DNA of 64,000 nt from Escherichia phage vB_EcoM_ESCO10. Where the stretch lies: the sequence record OM386655.1. One strand, given 5' to 3'. Under the pieces are notes generated by a model. It ran no database searches. It saw nothing but the letters and a program-made list of their open reading frames with translations, and had not been told where the DNA came from. A program made the position numbers and the translations under genes. Positions 2,144 through 37,801 of this stretch are shown here, piece after piece. Within the stretch, counting starts at the first letter, position 1. Each line of letters begins with the position of its first letter.

Positions 2144-5100
2144 ATGTCTGTACAAGCGCCTTCCGTTACTAGTTTGAGAATCGATAAACTCTCGGCTAAC
2201 CATGTAAGTATTCTTTGGGATGACGTAGGCGCCAATTTCTATTATTTCGTAGAACTGGCCCAAACCAAGGATGCGGGTGAATCTATACCCGATGATAAGT
2301 TATTTTGGAGAAATTTAGGTTATACCCCGAACAACAATTGGTTCGAAGAAAGATTTATTTCTCCTAATTCGTTTTATAAAATGCGTGTCGCTGTAGCAGC
2401 TCAAGGATTTGAACAATCTGACTGGGTTTATACAGAAGAATTCGAGACATTTTCTACCAACGCATATACCTTCGAGCATATGCGAGAATTCACTTTATCT
2501 AATAAATTCATTGAAGAAAAATTTACCAAAAATAACCAGAGTTACGTGGATTTTAATAGTGACGCCATTATGGCTTCTATGATGGCCGAAGATTTTACTT
2601 GGACTCCGGCATATTCGCACCTTTCTTCAATTTCTAATTATGTATTAAAGGCCGACCGCTTCCATGAGATTCAAGGAAGTATCCAAGCTGTTTGTAAAGA
2701 CCCTAATCGTTCCATTTTAATGGAGCTTGGTGGAGTACTTTATCTTTTAGAAAGATTTCAGAACACTGCTAAGGTATCTAATGACAAAGCTCAAAACTGG
2801 CACTATATTCGCCTGTTTAACGACCGAGTTGGTAATCCGGTTTCACGTACGGCCCATTACCAAACAGACACCACAACTTATGTTTTAGGTTATGATCGTA
2901 TATTTTACGGACGTAAATCGAGCGATATCAGATGGTCTGCTGATGATGTACGTTTTAGCTCGCAAGATGTGACTTTTGCTAAAATTGGTAGTGATATTGA
3001 CCTTGATTTTGAAATTGAAATTTTTGGTTCTTATGCTCGTTTACCGTTAGCTATTTCTACTATAGCAGAGGCAATATGTGCTTCGGATGATTTTATTTAC
3101 GTAGCTGCTAGAGACAGAGTTTATAAAGCAAAAACCACTGATGCCCCTATTGACACCGATCCAGGTTCACCTACTTACGGTGAAAAAATATTTGAAAGTG
3201 GATATTCTTCTATAACAGGTAATCCTAAAGCGGTTTGTTATAAACTGGATTCTATTCAGGGAAATACCTTTGCCTTAATTACAGGCGAAGTTAAAGAAGA
3301 AAGAATGGACCCTACTAAAGAAGAAAACGTGGTTGATTCTGAATCTAAAGGTGTTTATTGGCTTGATGTCGAAACCGATACATGGACCCGAGTATTTGGT
3401 AATACTGAAGAAGAGAGACGCCGTATTGAGCATGGTTATACCAGCATGTCTACAGATGGTGAAGAAATATTCTTTAGTTCTAGCAACTTCAAATATGAGG
3501 TAGAAGTTGACAATGAATTGCCTTTAGAATACCCTATCGTGGCTTCTGCAGTAAAATACGTTAAGGATGAGCAGTGGATTCACGATAAACACTATCTTAT
3601 GATGAGCTTTAGGGCTAACAGTAAATCAGATTTTAAAGAATTCAAACCTGGTAGAATGGCTTATTATGCTGAACCGTTCTTTAGTTGGTCTAGACGTGAT
3701 GGGACCCGCTCTTGGATTACCACAAGTAATCATGTAATGGTGGTTTATAATGATGCTTTATATCAGAAAATTATTGATTTAAACAGTGGTTCTTCTCCTG
3801 AACGTATTATCCGTGAAATTTGGAATAAAGGCTTTTGTACTGTAACATGCCCTAACATCGAATTCAATGGGTTTAAAAAATATTCTTCAGGTATCATGAT
3901 TCATAAATCATCAGGTGAATTGGTAGGATATTTTGAGTTCGATTATCGAGTTCGAGACGAGGTTAGAATAATTTGGAAGCCTAAAGAAATAATGTTTACG
4001 GCTGAGCTCCAAAACCAAGAGCATGAGATTCCATGGACTCCTAAAGAAGAAACCGGTGAACAGGACCCTGATTTGCGTCCTTTATTGGTTAAAATGGTTC
4101 CTGATAGTTATTTGCTTCAAGATTCTAACTTTGAAAAATTCTGCGAATATTATCTTCAATTTATTAGTGATGGCTCCGGCACCCATTATAATAATCTATT
4201 AAATCTTATTCGCAACCAATATCCTAGAGAAGAAGATGCATGGGAATACTTATGGTCCGAAATCTATAAACGTAATATCTATTTGTCTAAAGAAAAGCGT
4301 GATGAAGTAGTTCGTTTCTTCCAGGCTCGACAATCTGATTTCTGGTCTACAAAAGGTACCGAAGCTTCTTATAAGTTCTTGTTTAAATTGCTTTATAACG
4401 AAGATGTTGAAATTGATATCGAGTCTAAAAACTCTATTGAATACGATATCATCGTAGAATCTGATAATATCAGTGAAGATATAGTCGGCCAAACAATTTA
4501 TACTCCTACAGGAAGAAGTAATGTTACTTATATAGAACGAAATTATAAAGATGGTAAATTGCAATGGCGTTTAACCATTCATAATCTTTTAGGTCGTTTT
4601 ATAGTGGGTCAAGAGATTAAATCTGAACGCACATCATTTAAAGGTATGATAGTGCAGGGTGTACGCGGTAAAGAATTGTTAAGTAACAATATCGATTATA
4701 TTAACCGCAACCGTTCTTATTATGTTATGACTATTAAATCAAACCTCCCAACTTCTCGCTATCGTAATGACGTGTTGAGATTTGTCCATCCGGTAGGATT
4801 TGGTTTTATAGGGATTACATTGCTTTCTATGTTTGTTAATGTCGGTTTGACATTAAAGCACACGGAAACCATTATTAATATACTTAAGAACTATAAGTGG
4901 GACTCGGGACTTCCGTCAGAATGGTATGATAGAGTTGCTGTAATCGGATTTGATGGTAATATAGAACGAGACCCTAGAACAGGGCTCCCGGTTTATAATG
5001 TCGGTCCGAAAGCAGGTGAACCATTCCCTATTCCGGCAGATTATGATACAGAAAATGATTTCTCTGTATTCCAAGGCCAATTACCTCATGAACGTATTAA

Positions 5101-11172: not shown

Positions 11173-13335
11173 ATGATTGACAAACTGAGTATTAAAGAAC
11201 TTCCGTTTGTCGATGGTGTACCTGATGCATCCCAAGAGCGTATCCGTTGGATACGCAATGGTGAATGTATTGAAGGAGCCACGACTAAATACGGCCACGA
11301 CGGTAATTTGAATGCTCCTGCTTTAGGAGTACAAACTAACGTAGTTAGATTAGAAGAAAACGGCATAGCTTCTAAAGACAAAATTAATGAGCTTGTAGAT
11401 AACGTTAATTTAATTAATGAAGCCCTGGATATTTCTACTGATACAGCTGTTATTCAGCAAATTGAAAAGAACCGTGTCGATATATTGGCCGTAGATGAAA
11501 AGGCTTCCGAGACTAAAAAGGAATTAAGTGACTTAACAGTTAATTTTAATTTTTTAGAAGAAGACGTCGGTTATTATGACCCGACTTTAGATGGTCCATA
11601 TCTCACTGTTAGAGAAAATATAAATCTTCTTAAATCAGAAATTGGTCATTATGCAAACCAAGATATAAACAGTCAGCCGCTTCCTCCGGGTGAAACTTCT
11701 GAAGCCACCGGTATGAAACGCCGTATTATGGATAATACCAGTGCTATTGTCGACCATTCACAACGTATAGATACCCTTGAAAAGAATTATGAAGATTCTG
11801 ATGTAGGTCAACTCGGGCTTAAACTTAACGAAATTCGTGAAGAACTCGGTCCACACATTGATACGGTAGGTAAACAACCCGCTTATACTAGAATTTCCAC
11901 TCTCGAGACGGCGGCCGTAAGCTTTAACGAATCTATAGATTCTATCAAATCCAGCATAGGCTTTGATACGGGTCCTATTGATACCAGAGTAACTACATTA
12001 GAAACTAAAACATCCGTCCTAGAAAACACCGTTAATAACAGTTTGGTCCCTAGGGTTACTGCAGTAGAAACTGCCATCGGTGCTGCCGATACCCCTACTT
12101 CTATTAATGGCAGATTAGGTGGCTTGCGTACTGATGTTAACGAGTTAAAAACTATAGTTGGTGCTAGTTCATCTGAAGGGCTTCGTTTTCAGGTTTCTGA
12201 TATAGATCGTAAAATCGGCGCTGACGTAAGCCCAGCGGCCGGAACTATCAATAAACGTTTGAACGACCTTACAACTCAAGGTAATACTTCAGCCTCTACT
12301 ATTCAGGATTTGCAGGCAGAAATTGGTAATAACCAGACAGGTATCAAAGGTTCTATTCTTAAAATCACCAACCAAGTTGAAGGAACAAACCCCAACGGTA
12401 GTACTGTAGAAGAACGAGGGTTAATAAACTCTGTTAAAGGCCTTGAAGCTCAGATGACTACAAAATTGGGCGAAGCACCGACTGATGGTAAAATGTACGG
12501 ACGTAAGGATGCAGCATGGACTGAAATTCTTGACAGCACTACAGAGGTCGATGCGGTAAAAGCTTCTTTATTGGTTACTGACGGTAAGGTATCAGCTTTA
12601 ACGGCTAGAGTCGATACTAATGACGCTTCCATTTCTTCTCTTGATACCAGAACAGGTGCTTTAAACACCTCAGTAGGAGAAATTAAAGCCGATATTGTTT
12701 TGTTAAAATCTAAAGATACGGAGCAAGATAATCGTATTACTGCTTTGGAAGAAAGTGACGTAACAATTAATGGCAAAATAACGGCATTAGAAACCAAGAC
12801 CGATACCACTGATTCTGACGTTACTGCTTTGGCTTTAGATGTGAGTTCTATAGAATCACAATTAACTCCTATTAAAGCCGATATAAGCAAGAATAAAGGT
12901 GATATCGTTACTTTAACAGGACGAGTAGCGGCTAATGAAGGTGAAATTACTGATATTAAATTAGATACCGCTAAAATAACTCCTTTAACAACTCGTGTAA
13001 CCACAGCTGAAGGTAAAATAACTACCCTTGAAACGGGTTTAGCCGCAGTTAAAGTTGAATCGGATAAAGTAGCAGGAATTGATACCCGTTTAGGTACGGT
13101 CGAAGGTAAAGTTGGTACTCTTGAAACAGGTTTGGCTGCAGTTAAGGTCGAATCTGATAAAGTTGCTGATTTAGGGACCCGTTTAACTGCTGCTGAAGCA
13201 AAAATTACTGCTTTAGAAACAGAATTGACCAAACGTCCACCTGCTGCCCCTGTTGCAGACGGACTCCCGTATGTTCTGGTTGATAACGCATGGGTATTAT
13301 TGTCCGATTTTGTGACTTTAAACCCGGCACCATAA
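11173..13335 (+). CDS. wac: fibritin (whisker/neck fibre), expanded coiled-coil form
   Basis: 720 aa; long heptad coiled-coil body and C-terminal foldon-like LPYVLVDNAWVLLSDF; located between genes 12 and 13. Confidence 0.88.
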   Translation: MIDKLSIKELPFVDGVPDASQERIRWIRNGECIEGATTKYGHDGNLNAPALGVQTNVVRLEENGIASKDKINELVDNVNLINEALDISTDTAVIQQIEKNRVDILAVDEKASETKKELSDLTVNFNFLEEDVGYYDPTLDGPYLTVRENINLLKSEIGHYANQDINSQPLPPGETSEATGMKRRIMDNTSAIVDHSQRIDTLEKNYEDSDVGQLGLKLNEIREELGPHIDTVGKQPAYTRISTLETAAVSFNESIDSIKSSIGFDTGPIDTRVTTLETKTSVLENTVNNSLVPRVTAVETAIGAADTPTSINGRLGGLRTDVNELKTIVGASSSEGLRFQVSDIDRKIGADVSPAAGTINKRLNDLTTQGNTSASTIQDLQAEIGNNQTGIKGSILKITNQVEGTNPNGSTVEERGLINSVKGLEAQMTTKLGEAPTDGKMYGRKDAAWTEILDSTTEVDAVKASLLVTDGKVSALTARVDTNDASISSLDTRTGALNTSVGEIKADIVLLKSKDTEQDNRITALEESDVTINGKITALETKTDTTDSDVTALALDVSSIESQLTPIKADISKNKGDIVTLTGRVAANEGEITDIKLDTAKITPLTTRVTTAEGKITTLETGLAAVKVESDKVAGIDTRLGTVEGKVGTLETGLAAVKVESDKVADLGTRLTAAEAKITALETELTKRPPAAPVADGLPYVLVDNAWVLLSDFVTLNPAP
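13021..13212 (+). repeat. tandem ~96-bp (32-aa) coiled-coil repeat inside wac
   Basis: Two consecutive diverged units encoding TLETGLAAVKVESDKVA(G/D)..TRL...E.K. Confidence 0.7.
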
Positions 13336-13340
13336 TAAAA

Positions 13341-13352
13341 GGGCTTCGGCCC
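13341..13352 (+). terminator. intrinsic terminator hairpin (GGGC-UUCG-GCCC) followed by T6
   Basis: Seen directly after wac stop; UUCG tetraloop; T-run 13353-13358. Confidence 0.7.
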
Positions 13353-13360
13353 TTTTTTGC

Positions 13361-13368
13361 TATAAATA
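13361..13368 (+). promoter_or_regulatory. T4-type late promoter TATAAATA
   Basis: Exact TATAAATA 22 nt upstream of gene 13 ATG. Confidence 0.75.
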
Positions 13369-13389
13369 CGGTTATTAGAGGAATAAAAC

Positions 13390-14322
13390 ATGGCAAGCGA
13401 ATCATTTAACCCTAAGCAACTCAAGGACGCTATCCTGCGCCGCCTGGGTGCGCCGATTACAAATATTGAAGTAACTACAGACCAAGTATACGATTGCATC
13501 CAGCGAGCCCTAGAGCTCTACGGTGAGTATCATTATAACGGGTATAACAAAGGCTATCAGGCTTTTTATATCGGTCATGACGATGAAGAAAAATTCCGTA
13601 ATGGGGTATTTGACCTTAAAGGCCGTAATATATTTGCAGTGACACAAATTTTGAGAACCAATGTAGGTTCTTTAACATCTATGGATGGGCAAGCAACTTA
13701 TCCATGGTTTACTGATTTTGTATTAGGCTTAGCAGGTATTAATGGCGGGTTAGGGTCTTCGTGTAACAGTTTTGGACCTAATGCCTTCGGTGCTGACCTT
13801 GGTTATTTTACCCAACTAATGCAATATCGTTCTATGATGCAGGACCTTTTGGTTCCACTACCTGATTATTGGTATAACGACGCCACCGAACAGTTGAAGG
13901 TAATGGGTAACTTTGTTAAAGGTGATTTTATTGTAATTGAAGTTTATACTCGCTCTTTTAATGGAGTGGATTCTATGGTAGGAAATACCGTAGGATATGG
14001 TTATGCTTCATCTTGTGGTGAAGATGCATGGAGTCCAGGTGCTGTTTGGGATAATCCGGCTCGTCGTATTTCTGGTATGCGTGTAGGTGAGGACCTTGGT
14101 CTTCAAGATGGTGCATATAATAACCGTTGGGTTAAAGATTATGCTACTGCATTGGTTAAAGAAGTCAATGGTAATATTTTAGCCAAACACCAAGGCATGC
14201 AACTTGCAGGTGGAACCACCGTAGATGGTATTCGATTGATTGAAGAAGCTCGTTTAGAAAAAGAACGTCTTCGCGAAGAATTGGATTTACTCGACCCACC
14301 AACACCTATTTTAATTGGATAA
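13390..14322 (+). CDS. 13: neck protein gp13
   Basis: 310 aa; [38 protein letters not shown] matches T4 gp13 N-terminal region. Confidence 0.93.
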
Positions 14323-14324
14323 TT

Positions 14325-14969
14325 ATGAACTATAATAAGATTTACAAATCTTTAATAAATAAGGGCCTCGAAAGAGGTCTAAATAAAAAGAAGGTAGGGT
14401 TTTATACAGAGAAGCATCATATTGTCCCTAAATCCATGGGTGGTAGTGAAGACAAATCTAATTTTGTTCTTTTAACCGCTAGAGAACATTTTGTAGCTCA
14501 TCAATTATTGTATAAAATACACAAAAACCGTTCTATGGCCCATGCTATGATTAATATGTGTGCTGATAGCACAGGTAATAGGGTTAATTCTAAGTTATTA
14601 GATTGGCACCGTAAAGCTAAGGCTAAGGCCCAAAGTGAGATGGTTTCAGGTGAAAACCATCCTATGTATAACAAGAAACATAAAAAAGAAACATTAGAAA
14701 AAATGAGATTGGCCAAATTAGGCGTCCCATGGACTGAAGAAGTTAAGGAATCTAGAAGAGAAGAATTACTTAAAACCTCTGAACACGCTAGGACTTTCAT
14801 CGACTATAAATCTGGCGGAGAAAATCCAGCCGCAAAGAAAATATGTATAGAAGGTATAGTATTTGATTATATGGAAGAAGCGGTTCCTTGGTGTAATATA
14901 ACAAGAAGAACTCTTTTAAATAGAATCAAATCTTCAGACCCTAAATGGAGGGATTGGAATTATGTCTAA
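14325..14969 (+). CDS. free-standing HNH homing endonuclease (HNH + NUMOD-like motifs)
   Basis: 214 aa; [31 protein letters not shown] is an HNH motif; [11 protein letters not shown] and ENPAAKK motifs; wedged between genes 13 and 14 with 8-nt overlap of gene 14. Confidence 0.8.
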
Positions 14970-15738
14970 CACTTTTGATTCAAGCTTATTTGCTAGGCTT
15001 GAGGATGGTTCAGGTTACGTTAATACAAATAAAAGCGAAATTCTCAATCCGTTCGTCAACTTTTATCGCCATGAGAATACTCAAACATTGGCCGATGCTT
15101 TAGTTGCAGAATCTATCCAAATGAGGGGAATTCCTTTATATTATATCCCTAGACAGTATGTTAAGCCTGACCAATTGTTCGGCGAAGACCTCCAAAACAA
15201 GTTTACAGTGGCCTGGAAGTTTGCGGGTTATTTGGATTCCTTTGAAGGATATTCTGGTGACAATACTTATTTCAGTAAGTTTGGTATGATGGTTAATGAT
15301 GAAGTAACAATCACAATTAACCCTAACCTTTTTAAACATCAATGCAACGGTACTGAACCAGCTTCAGGTGATTTGATTTATTTCCCTATGGACAACAGCC
15401 TATTTGAAATTAACTGGGTTCAACCTTACGACCCGTTCTATCAAGTTGGTACAAACGTCCAGCGTCGTATTACTGCTACCAAGTTCATTTATAATGGTGA
15501 AGAACTTCGTCCTGAATTACAGAGAAATGAAGGTATTAATATTCCTGAATTCAGTGAGCTTGATTTAATGCCTGTTAAGAATATTGATGGGTTGGCTGAT
15601 ATCTCAGATATCCAATACGAAGAGGTTAATGAGATTAATGCTGAAGCGGCGGAATTCGTACACCCTTATGTGGTGATTAATGGTAGAGGAGAAGATGCTC
15701 CTCCTACAGCATTTGATGATGCTTTTTTAGATGATTAA
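14962..15738 (+). CDS. 14: neck protein gp14
   Basis: 258 aa, size and position as T4 gp14. Confidence 0.92.
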
Positions 15739-15745
15739 ATAATAC

Positions 15746-15764
15746 ATGGCGCATAGTGCGCCAT
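15746..15764 (+). terminator. hairpin ATGGCGCA-TAG-TGCGCCAT after gene 14
   Basis: 8-bp stem, 3-nt loop, seen directly; sits between gene 14 stop and gene 15 SD. Confidence 0.4.
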
Positions 15765-15776
15765 TTAGGAGGTTTG

Positions 15777-16639
15777 ATGTTTGGACATTGGTATAATAGT
15801 TCGCTACGTCGCTATATTGTTTTGATGGGTGATTTATTTTCCCATGTTCAAGTAGCGCGTCAAAGAGAAGACACAGGGCTTAAATTTATTAAAGTTCCTA
15901 TTACATATGCTTCTAAAGAAAGATTTATGGCTAATTTAGGTAAGTGGACGGCAGTTCAAAATATCCCAAATCCTAATATGTCTCCTAAAGAAAGGGCTGA
16001 ACAAAAAGCTAAAGTGGAAACTGTTCTTCCACGTATGAACCTTCAAATGGTTGACATGCTTTATAACTCACAATACAAAACAGCCCTTCAAAATAGAACA
16101 CAAATACAATTTGAGAACGGAGACCCGCGAAAACGAGTCAGCCAATATTCTCCTACTCCAGTAAAAATGATTTTTGAACTAGGAATTTACACTAGAACTC
16201 AAGATGATATGTTCCAAATTGTGGAACAAATTATGCCATATTTCCAACCTCACTTTAATACAACAATTACCGAACTCTATACAAACGAAATTAAATTTGA
16301 CCGCGACATTCGTATTGTATTTCAATCTATAGCAATGGACGAACAATTAGAAGGTGATACCAGTTCACGTCGTCGCTTGGAATGGTCTATGATGTTTGAG
16401 GTTAACGGATGGCTGTATCCTCCTGTTAAAGAAATGGAAGGCGAAATCAAAACCATTTATCTTGATTTCTTTGCCAACTCTAAAGAACTCGCTCCTGAAG
16501 GTAATTTTGAATCTGTTGATAGCGAAGTGGTTCCTAGAGGTGTAGAAGAAAAAGAATGGGATGGTAGATCCATTCAAACATATTCACAAGATATTCCGGT
16601 GCCTGTTGAACCAGAACCTCCAGCACCAAGGAGAAACTC

Positions 16640-35612: not shown

Positions 35613-37109
35613 ATGAAGATTAATGTACATTTTGAAGATTTTAGTCATGTCCGAATTGAGTGTGACGATTCCACTTTCTTCGAACTCAGAGACTATTTTA
35701 GTTTTGAAGCCGATGGCTATAAGTTTAACCCAAAGTATCGTTATGGCCAATGGGATGGGAGAATTCGTCTTCTAGACTATAATCGTAAACTCCCTTATGG
35801 TCTGGTTTCACAGATGAGAAAATTCGCAGACCAATTCGAATACCAACTGTGGATTGACCCCCGTATCACCGAAACTGAAGAAATTTCTGAAACCGAATTA
35901 AAAGAATGGATTGCTTCTAAAGAAATCTATTCAGGTAATACTAAGATTGAGCCTCATTGGTATCAAGCTGATGCCGTATTCAATGGTCTTAAACATCGTA
36001 GACGCATTCTTAATTTACCTACATCCGCAGGTAAATCATTAATCCAGGCACTCCTGGCGCGTTATTACGTAGAACATTATGAAGGTAAAATTCTTATCCT
36101 TGTTCCTACTACTGCTCTCGTCGACCAGATGATTAATGACTTCGCTGATTATCGTTTATTCGGTAAACAACATATGCTTGGTATTCGAGCTGGTACCAAA
36201 CGTGATTCAGACGCAATGATTTATGTTTCAACTTATCAAACGGCTGTTAAACAACCTAAAGAATGGTTTGCTCAGTTTGGTATGTTTATGAACGACGAAT
36301 GTCACTTGGCTACAGGTAAGAGTATTTCTACTATTATTGAAGGTCTTACTAATTGCATGTTTAAATTTGGTTTGTCTGGTTCTTTAAAAGACGGTAAAGC
36401 TAACCTGATGCAATACATGGGTTTGTTTGGTGATATTTTTAAACCTGTTTCCACCTCCCAATTAATGGAAGAAGGACAGGTCACCGATTTAAAAATAAAC
36501 AGTATTTTCCTTAGATATCCAGACGAATTCACTGTTAAGATGAAAGGTAAAGATTACCAATCAGAAATTAAAGTCATTACTAAGGCTACTCGTCGTAATA
36601 AATGGGTTGCTAATTTAGCTGTTAAGCTCGCTAAGAAAGAAGAGAACGTATTCTTGATGTTTAAAAACATCGAGCACGGTAAAACTCTTTTTGAAATGGT
36701 TAAAGAGCAACATAAAGAAGTTTATTACGTATCAGGCGAAGTTAATACAGAAACTCGTAATGCTCTTAAGTTAATGGCGGAAAACGGTAAGGGTATTATT
36801 GTTGTGGCAAGTTACGGTGTATTTTCTACAGGTATTTCTGTTAAGAATCTCCATCACGTAATATTTGCCCATCCTGTAAAATCTAAAATTATTGTACTGC
36901 AAACCATCGGTCGTGTACTTCGTAAACATGACAGTAAACAAGTCGCGCAAGTTTTTGATATCATCGACGACATGGGCGTGAAACCTAAATCCAAAGATTC
37001 TAAAAAGAAATACGTTCACCTAAATTATGCATTAAAACATGGATTGGATCGTATTCAACGATATGCAGACGAGAAATTTAATTATGTCATGAAAGAGGTC
37101 CAAATTTGA
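35613..37109 (+). CDS. uvsW: UvsW RNA-DNA/DNA-DNA helicase
   Basis: 498 aa; motifs NLPTSAGKSLI (Walker A), DECH, VLQTIGRVLR; strong match to T4 UvsW. Confidence 0.95.
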   Translation: MKINVHFEDFSHVRIECDDSTFFELRDYFSFEADGYKFNPKYRYGQWDGRIRLLDYNRKLPYGLVSQMRKFADQFEYQLWIDPRITETEEISETELKEWIASKEIYSGNTKIEPHWYQADAVFNGLKHRRRILNLPTSAGKSLIQALLARYYVEHYEGKILILVPTTALVDQMINDFADYRLFGKQHMLGIRAGTKRDSDAMIYVSTYQTAVKQPKEWFAQFGMFMNDECHLATGKSISTIIEGLTNCMFKFGLSGSLKDGKANLMQYMGLFGDIFKPVSTSQLMEEGQVTDLKINSIFLRYPDEFTVKMKGKDYQSEIKVITKATRRNKWVANLAVKLAKKEENVFLMFKNIEHGKTLFEMVKEQHKEVYYVSGEVNTETRNALKLMAENGKGIIVVASYGVFSTGISVKNLHHVIFAHPVKSKIIVLQTIGRVLRKHDSKQVAQVFDIIDDMGVKPKSKDSKKKYVHLNYALKHGLDRIQRYADEKFNYVMKEVQI

Positions 37110-37801
37110 ATTATCAAAAAATTTATGACAATTTAATTAGAAGCCGAAAGGCTTCTAAACCTGAGGGTTATACAGAATCTCATCATATTATCCCGTCATG
37201 TATTGGCGGGCCTGATACTCAGGAAAATAGAGTACGCCTTACCCCAGAAGAACATTTTATAGCTCATAAATTACTAGCTAAAATTTATCCAAATAACTAC
37301 GGACTCATAAAAGCTGTTATTTCTATGGGTATGAGTTCCAGGACTCATAAAAGACAATTTAGTAAATCATACGGCTGGGAACGTAGACAATTGGCAATTC
37401 TTCAGACTGGCGAAGGAAATCCATTTTACGGTAAGCACCACACTGAAGCTCATAAAGAATACATGAGCAATTTATTTAAAGGTAGACCTATTTTATGGGG
37501 CGATAAAATATCCGCAACTAAAAAAGCGAATCCTTATAAATACACACAAGAACAATGTCAAGCTATATCTGAAAGAAATTCTGGGGTCGGCAACGGCATG
37601 TATGGTAAAAATCATACACCAGAAGCTTCTAAGAAAATTTCAGATAAAGCTAAAGAAAGATATAAAGACCCATCTAAAAACCCGGCAGCTAAAAAGGTTA
37701 CTATACATGGTGTTGAATATGGCTCGATGAAACAAGCTTCCGAAGCCACGGGTCTTTCTCGTCACAAAATCAGAAATTTAATGAAACAGGTGGATTTATG
37801 A
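37106..37801 (+). CDS. free-standing HNH homing endonuclease (paralog of 14325..14969)
   Basis: 231 aa; begins at TTG 37106 (AGAGG SD 7 nt upstream) overlapping uvsW stop; ESHHIIPSCIGGPDTQENRVRLTPEEHFIAH HNH motif; GEGNPFYGKHH and KNPAAKK shared with first copy. Confidence 0.78.
   Translation: MNYQKIYDNLIRSRKASKPEGYTESHHIIPSCIGGPDTQENRVRLTPEEHFIAHKLLAKIYPNNYGLIKAVISMGMSSRTHKRQFSKSYGWERRQLAILQTGEGNPFYGKHHTEAHKEYMSNLFKGRPILWGDKISATKKANPYKYTQEQCQAISERNSGVGNGMYGKNHTPEASKKISDKAKERYKDPSKNPAAKKVTIHGVEYGSMKQASEATGLSRHKIRNLMKQVDL

Follow-up and report, generated by a model that had tools for sequence, protein, structure and literature searches.

The locus studied here raises the question of why an endonuclease gene stands between neck genes 13 and 14 of Escherichia phage vB_EcoM_ESCO10 (sequence record OM386655.1), and how it came to be there. 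We analysed a stretch of 64,000 nucleotides (nt) of this genome (hereafter the window, to which all positions refer unless another record is named). The window belongs to a Dhakavirus, i.e. a JS98-like relative of phage T4, and its best 20-kb match is phage dhaeg (93.8%). Our results suggest that this is very probably a free-standing gene for a homing endonuclease of the T4 Mob type, with an HNH nuclease domain, which moves in Dhakavirus together with a foreign tract of gene 14. A sequence-only reading of the locus had already proposed a free-standing homing endonuclease, and this is borne out by (i) an intact HNH motif, (ii) a modular C-terminus, (iii) the lack of an intron, (iv) a sporadic distribution and (v) a cassette that is shared with another phage and includes a foreign flank.

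The open reading frame (ORF) of 214 amino acids (aa) is present as first described, with an ATG start and an HNH motif at aa 28–59. Gene 13 ends with a TAA at 14320–14322, followed by a 2-nt spacer (tt) and the endonuclease ATG at 14325; the ORF had been said to begin 3 nt after gene 13, which is correct for the step from the last base of gene 13 to the ATG (+3) but not for the spacer itself. The 8-nt overlap with gene 14 is real, since gene 14 starts with its ATG at 14962 and the ORF ends at 14969. The insertion is indeed missing from T4 (record L012), where gene 13 ends at 4554 and gene 14 starts at 4556, with one base between them and no ORF. Both neck genes are complete and uninterrupted around the endonuclease ORF in the window, and no Rfam family (group I and group II introns included) was found in 13000–16000 at E ≤ 0.1. 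An intron or intein location is ruled out by these two results, and the ORF does not lie inside a self-splicing intron as a group I intron-encoded endonuclease would. The gene is free-standing, between genes, because no intron ribozyme surrounds the ORF.

The endonuclease gene is sporadic in its lineage. We surveyed the 13/14 junction in the 40 best megablast records, all of them Dhakavirus and some of them GenBank/RefSeq duplicates. The junction is empty in 37 records, where it reads TAAttATG and the two genes span 1709–1712 nt; the same gene is present in a single record, that of phage vB_EcoM_FB (hereafter FB; 98.6% aa identity), while the other two records (phage MX01, GenBank and RefSeq) contain a different endonuclease of 208 aa and the GIY-YIG type. 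Comparison with insert-free relatives had been proposed as a check on the sequence-only reading, and it reveals a gene that is far from universal in the lineage. At 90% identity, the protein forms a cluster of three members among ∼15 billion proteins (i.e. ESCO10, FB and one metagenomic sequence, P0122).

The flanks of the gene tell how it may have arrived. In a three-way alignment of the window, FB and dhaeg, the window and FB are 99–100% identical over a cassette at 14284–15218 and 88–95% identical outside it, in backbones whose divergence is ∼10% (∼7–12%). There is no difference in the 298 nt of cassette flanks and there are five in the 645-nt endonuclease gene; such a near-identical cassette in two diverged backbones points to a recent transfer. 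Its gene 14 part is foreign. At all of the ∼75 variable sites in 14962–15210 the window agrees with FB and differs from dhaeg, and the tract is 67–83% identical to resident alleles, i.e. those of empty genomes, compared with 96–100% identity between the window and dhaeg beyond ∼15250. From there on FB diverges separately while the window rejoins dhaeg. Codons 1–92 of gene 14 contain 62 nt differences (38 synonymous and 11 non-synonymous codons), whereas the 165 codons 93–257 contain 16. Because these differences are mostly synonymous, they fit a tract brought in from a diverged homologue better than mutations produced locally. A sensitive blastn search of 50,697 phage records for the donor of the tract found none above 79% identity except FB, and the donor lineage is therefore unsampled. 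On the gene 13 side, the last ∼35 nt of the gene are identical in endonuclease-bearing and empty Dhakaviruses, so that no tract is visible upstream.

This pattern of cassette and tract is consistent with co-conversion, i.e. with the signature that homing would leave. T4 MobE is promoterless, nicks the downstream nrdB gene at nt 122–126 and co-converts flanking sequence (PMC2790892), and co-conversion by MobE and Seg enzymes is experimentally proven (PMC2790892, PMC2988022). MobE resembles the window protein in having a homologous HNH domain and in being encoded by a free-standing gene just 5′ of an essential gene; its nick falls in the 5′ part of nrdB, and the foreign tract described here occupies the 5′ ∼255 nt of gene 14. 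The two differ in site (nrdA/nrdB in T4, 13/14 here) and build: MobE has 141 aa and an unrelated C-terminal region, in contrast to the NUMOD3 motif and predicted I-TevI-like helix-turn-helix of the window protein. MobE activity has been demonstrated in vivo, whereas that of the window protein is predicted.

The N-terminal half of the protein is, by its sequence, an HNH nuclease with all catalytic residues, and nuclease activity is predicted. The ORF matches phrog_655 ‘homing endonuclease’ (E = 3.8e-49), and residues H31, H32, N46, H55 and H59 are invariant in an alignment of 40 homologues. The HNH motif aligns with that of a group II intron maturase (6me0) and with Cas8-HNH, and T4 MobE shares 49% identity with the ORF over aa 1–79 (E = 3e-24), where the similarity ends. 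An AlphaFold2 model with a mean predicted local distance difference test score (pLDDT) of 91.7 places a beta-beta-alpha core (strands 29–32 and 47–50, helix 52–66) before long linker helices and a small terminal domain.

The C-terminal half is predicted to be a modular DNA-binding region that consists of NUMOD3 and an I-TevI-like helix-turn-helix. Residues 181–243 of I-TevI align to aa 150–214 with 32% identity (BLASTP, E = 4e-5), and positions 101–212 of TIGR01453 match aa 96–213 (E = 1.4e-7, a match below the cutoff that covers half of the model). Among PDB structures, Foldseek ranks the DNA-binding domain of I-TevI (1i3j) first (probability 1.0, E = 9.9e-3), followed by HNH domains, i.e. 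Cas8-HNH (probability 0.95) and McrA. The C-terminal DNA-binding module of I-TevI (PDB 1I3J/1T2T; PF20987; TIGR01453) appears to be of the same type as aa 150–214, but I-TevI is an intron-encoded GIY-YIG nuclease with a zinc finger in its linker, whereas the window protein is an HNH nuclease encoded by a free-standing gene. I-TevI makes its double-strand break 23–25 nt from its insertion site. The same overall design, in which an extended NUMOD-type linker joins an N-terminal HNH domain to a helix-turn-helix at the C-terminus, is found in I-HmuI (PDB 1U3E), the intron-encoded HNH nicking endonuclease of Bacillus phage SPO1 and the structural paradigm for monomeric nicking HNH homing enzymes.

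Several observations weigh against the reading as a homing endonuclease gene. Two Pfam matches stay under their gathering scores, HNH just so (20.1 bits against 21.4) and PF20987 (I-TevI_DNA-bd) more clearly (18.9 bits against 27). All five differences between the window and FB fall in the C-terminal, DNA-binding half and three are non-synonymous, which could hint at relaxed constraint. Furthermore, whatever goes beyond an intact HNH endonuclease being encoded (i.e. activity, target site and homing) is deduced. A possible explanation is that the gene is a decaying or inactive relic, kept only since translation of the essential gene 14 now starts from signals within it and since its deletion would be costly. 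Gene 14 does take both its ribosome-binding site and its ATG from the endonuclease gene, and T4 has defunct endonucleases such as I-TevIII (PMC2790892). We nevertheless consider a relic unlikely: three independent sequences (ESCO10/window, FB and P0122) each have an unbroken, full-length ORF, every catalytic residue is conserved, the model is confidently folded with no residue below a pLDDT of 50, and the cassette shared by two diverged backbones implies a recent transfer.

Alternatively, the ORF and tract could have spread by general homologous recombination, as part of T4-like mosaicism and with no homing at all. The window is in any case a mosaic, with gene 13 closest to C6 and distal gene 14 and gene 15 closest to dhaeg/JS98, and sequence comparison cannot separate break-induced conversion from an ordinary crossover. 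This alternative is made quite improbable by a tract that is one-sided and starts exactly at the endonuclease gene, by MX01, which has an unrelated nuclease at the same site and its own foreign tract on the same side, and by the match of the pattern to the proven co-conversion of MobE and Seg enzymes (PMC2790892, PMC2988022). We give hardly any credence to a domesticated nuclease that serves the phage, e.g. by excluding competing phages or satellites or by processing DNA, and is not purely selfish. Endonuclease-derived genes have been co-opted in other phages (PMC10448857) and the PADLOC ‘HEase’ model matches the C-terminus (E = 2.8e-8), but this match concerns a generic helix-turn-helix domain with no partner genes, and a role in a defence system was rejected on that ground. 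Absence from nearly all close relatives marks the gene as dispensable, and both the place where it lies and the signature in its flanks are typical of classic homing.

A gene that had invaded an intergenic site was the earlier interpretation, and the empty junction of T4 agrees with it; the event does not appear as a one-off, however, as the junction holds an HNH gene in T6 and many Tequatroviruses and a GIY-YIG gene in at least five lineages. The 13/14 junction is an endonuclease hotspot with three architectures (hereafter types A, B and C). Type A, present in T6 (ORF154) and dozens of Tequatroviruses, is an HNH protein of 270 aa whose C-terminus is rich in Cys and His (zinc-finger-like). Type B is SegC-like, has 204–214 aa and a NUMOD3/helix-turn-helix C-terminus, and is carried by MX01 (Dhakavirus), moskry (Mosigvirus), G5211 (Krischvirus), SP18 (Gaprivervirus) and a Klebsiella phage; its members include MX01 ORF161, moskry_190, G5211_00151, SP18 ‘segC’ and Earwig CDS0205 (phrog_314). 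The assignment of type B to GIY-YIG rests on a YRLY...KIYGGK motif, on annotations (RPN187 ‘GIY-YIG endonuclease’ and SP18 ‘segC’) and on phrog_314, while Pfam calls no GIY-YIG domain in the MX01 endonuclease at E < 0.05. Type C is the window protein, with HNH, NUMOD3 and helix-turn-helix.

Type C shares features with each of the other two. T6 ORF154-type proteins (AXN58195.1; P0007) occupy the same junction and have the closest N-terminal domain (54–60% identity over aa 1–107; 54% for T6 ORF154 itself, E = 5e-39), but they are longer and their Cys/His-rich C-terminus has nothing similar to the window protein past aa 107. In type B the likeness lies at the other end: the C-terminal NUMOD3/helix-turn-helix region is homologous to that of the window protein (28–36% identity, E down to 3e-19), whereas the N-terminal GIY-YIG-type nuclease is unrelated to the HNH domain. 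The window protein is not of the Seg type itself, because its N-terminus is HNH and it has no similarity to the five junction GIY-YIG proteins before aa ∼105. The junctions also differ in layout. In type A the endonuclease ATG overlaps the gene 13 stop (ATGA) and the endonuclease stop precedes the gene 14 ATG without overlap. In type B and the window, by contrast, the endonucleases share the ending ..KW.(D/E/G)W(N/S/R)Y.., which runs over the gene 14 ATG and supplies a ribosome-binding site; the Shine-Dalgarno sequence of gene 14 inside the endonuclease 3′ end is also found in MX01, moskry, G5211 and Earwig.

These likenesses suggest where the two halves of the protein come from. The best non-self matches of aa 1–107 are T6-type genes, at 54–60% identity, and the three nearest N-terminal relatives checked in a database of 5.8 billion clusters (P0002, P0003 and P0007) all lie between gp13 and gp14. 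For aa 108–214 the best non-self matches are the 13/14-junction GIY-YIG genes of MX01, moskry, G5211, SP18 and Earwig (50–72 bits), which match better than the C-termini of any of the 120 best HNH homologues (at most 57 bits). The protein therefore looks like a hybrid of two rival endonuclease families at 13/14, with NUMOD3 (aa 104–128) as the approximate joint and with ancestry supported at the level of families: it resembles type A in its nuclease half, and type B in its DNA-binding half and in how its 3′ end meets gene 14. Domain shuffling among phage endonucleases, with NUMOD and helix-turn-helix modules common to the GIY-YIG and HNH families, is established (PMC2988022, PMC3943268, PMC10448857).

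Some comparisons weaken the hybrid reading. HNH genes at other loci are 54–56% identical in the N-terminal half, against 57–60% for those at 13/14, and the C-terminal identity to the GIY-YIG type is only 28–36%. The combination of HNH, NUMOD3 and helix-turn-helix also exists elsewhere (P0006, 39% identity, in an unrelated context), and need not therefore have arisen at 13/14. We rejected a chimera of known parents: had sampled genes recombined recently, identities higher than 54–60% in the N-terminal half and 28–36% in the C-terminal half would be expected. We regard it as possible, and put it forward tentatively, that the hybrid arose by a ‘nuclease-cartridge swap’, in which a type B element would have kept its binding half, its target on the gene 14 side and its overlapping start and acquired a T6-type HNH nuclease. 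Such a swap would presumably arise by recombination of two occupied alleles in a mixed infection.

We also compared the foreign tracts or linked polymorphisms of the three types. In MX01 (type B) the tract is limited to nt 0–120 of gene 14 and the end of gene 13 is unchanged. In type A (T6 and L011 compared with T4) there are 11 substitutions in the last 29 nt of gene 13 and five in gene 14 (+35 to +78); these last 29 nt are identical in T6 (L013 1775–1804) and L011, and were compared with T4 L012 4525–4554. This points to the 3′ end of gene 13 as the target of the T6 ORF154-type enzyme. MX01 and window/FB share a changed block, GAAATTCTCAATCC instead of GAAATAATGAACCC, at gene 14 +76 to +89. 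In this small sample the target side appears to follow the DNA-binding module, with the window type behaving like type B. The target in empty alleles is proposed to lie in the part of gene 14 that corresponds to the foreign tract, and the best candidate for the target region is the polymorphism-dense interval +36 to +92 of gene 14 (14997–15056).

A homing cycle could proceed as follows. When a carrier and an empty relative infect the same cell, the C-terminal domain would bind gene 14 at its 5′ end or slightly within it, and the tethered HNH domain would nick or cut nearby. T4-type recombination-dependent repair would then copy the endonuclease gene and adjacent donor sequence into the recipient, and the carrier allele would be protected by the 62 substitutions of the tract and by its split junction.

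The endonuclease ATG stands precisely where empty genomes have their gene 14 ATG, with GGATAATTATG followed by AAC in the window and by GCT in empty genomes, and the last endonuclease codons (..KWRDWNYV and the stop) hold both the GGAGGG Shine-Dalgarno sequence and the new gene 14 ATG. Through the overlap with the endonuclease gene, gp14 begins with MSNTFD.. in the window, compared with MATFD.. in empty genomes. The 3′ end of the endonuclease gene (GATTGGAATTATG, 14953–14964) resembles the native gene 13/14 junction (AATTGGATAATTATG, 14312–14327). The context 5′ of the gene 14 ATG is therefore largely recreated after insertion; this likeness could reflect a translation-initiation region that was kept, or chance arising from the conserved ..W-N-Y-V ending.

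The late promoter consensus upstream of gene 13 has no further exact match on the plus strand from 13368 until 18444 (16 matches in the window, compared with 7.2 expected). We found no promoter or terminator belonging to the endonuclease gene, as sigma-70-like and terminator-like sites are at or below shuffled expectation, and RNA folding of 14296–14400 (z = −2.27) and 14900–15010 (z = −0.64) gave no convincing regulatory structure. A GC-rich hairpin with a 7-bp stem and a GAAA tetraloop (GGGCCUC-GAAA-GAGGUCU) lies at 14363–14380 on the plus strand, ∼40 nt 3′ of the start codon; it leaves the ribosome-binding site uncovered and is not followed by a U-tract. Expression of T4 mobE is limited by a terminator inside the gene, and a regulatory role of the hairpin is conceivable, if unsupported. 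The endonuclease gene, apparently lacking a promoter of its own, would be transcribed late along with its two neighbours, starting at the late promoter of gene 13, and its translation would be coupled to termination of gene 13. T4 mobE is likewise promoterless and depends on upstream transcription (PMC2790892).

Table. Features of the 13/14 junction, by window coordinates.
Feature	Coordinates	Strand	Evidence or remarks
HNH endonuclease gene	14325–14969	+	ATG start, 214 aa, 645 nt
Mob-type HNH nuclease domain, aa 1–107	14325–14645	+	MobE and T6 ORF154 similarity, invariant residues
HNH motif, aa 26–59	14400–14501	+	H31, H32, N46, H55, H59
NUMOD3 motif, aa 104–128	14634–14708	+	Pfam PF07460, 30 bits (gathering score 20.4), E = 5e-7
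I-TevI-type C-terminal helix-turn-helix subdomain (predicted), aa 150–214	14772–14966	+	BLASTP, TIGR01453, Foldseek
Cassette common to the window and phage vB_EcoM_FB	14284–15218	+	99–100% identity
Foreign 5′ tract of gene 14 (putative co-conversion tract)	14962–15234	+	∼255 nt; divergence from dhaeg
T4-type late promoter consensus TATAAATA	13361–13368	+	Exact match, 22 nt 5′ of gene 13 ATG
Gene 13, neck protein/head-tail adaptor (Ad2)	13390–14322	+	310 aa; phrog_211, E = 6.8e-41
GGAGGG Shine-Dalgarno sequence of gene 14	14947–14952	+	Read from sequence; 9 nt 5′ of gene 14 ATG
Gene 14, neck protein/head closure	14962–15738	+	258 aa; PF11649, E = 1.7e-103

Some observations concern annotation and the wider neighbourhood. 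The endonuclease is identical (100%) to UPW37879.1 of phage vB_EcoM_ESCO10, whose GenBank name, ‘baseplate hub subunit and tail lysozyme’, is a clear mis-annotation; the FB copy is named ‘hypothetical protein’. Gene 14 is followed in the window by gp15, gp16 and gp17. Just 5′ of the neck module lies the fibritin gene (wac; 11173–13335, plus strand, 720 aa), a coiled-coil gene that is strongly variable in length: it is shorter in FB (1590 nt), C6 (1545 nt) and T4 (1464 nt) and close in MX01 (2163 nt). A second free-standing HNH-type ORF (37106–37801, plus strand, 231 aa from a TTG start) stands right after a uvsW-like helicase gene (35613–37109), whose stop it overlaps by 4 nt. It contains two NUMOD3 motifs, and its identity to the 13/14 protein is 31% over aa 1–205.

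Taken alone, the gene, mis-annotated in GenBank, adds one more free-standing homing endonuclease gene to those of T4-like phages, which are a well-known kind. The window and FB together, by contrast, make a clean sequence-level case of an endonuclease gene that passes between diverged phages and takes with it foreign sequence from an essential structural gene, and such movement is a way in which these elements reshuffle essential genes. In the papers searched, we found no description of an endonuclease gene between genes 13 and 14, nor of a 13/14 hotspot with three architectures (i.e. those of T6, of the T4-like lineages with GIY-YIG, at least five in number, and of the window), and a review of T4 mobile elements does not mention the junction (PMC2988022).

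The apparent hybrid predicts that the target side follows the DNA-binding module and not the nuclease module. Monomeric modular nucleases, such as I-TevI fusions, are used in genome engineering, and a natural fusion of an HNH nuclease with an I-TevI-type binding region is a candidate nickase scaffold. If the cartridge swap did take place, the 13/14 junction would be a three-way natural experiment on recombining target recognition and cleavage chemistry, and it could show whether a new cartridge lets an element attack alleles that are occupied or immunised by its rival.

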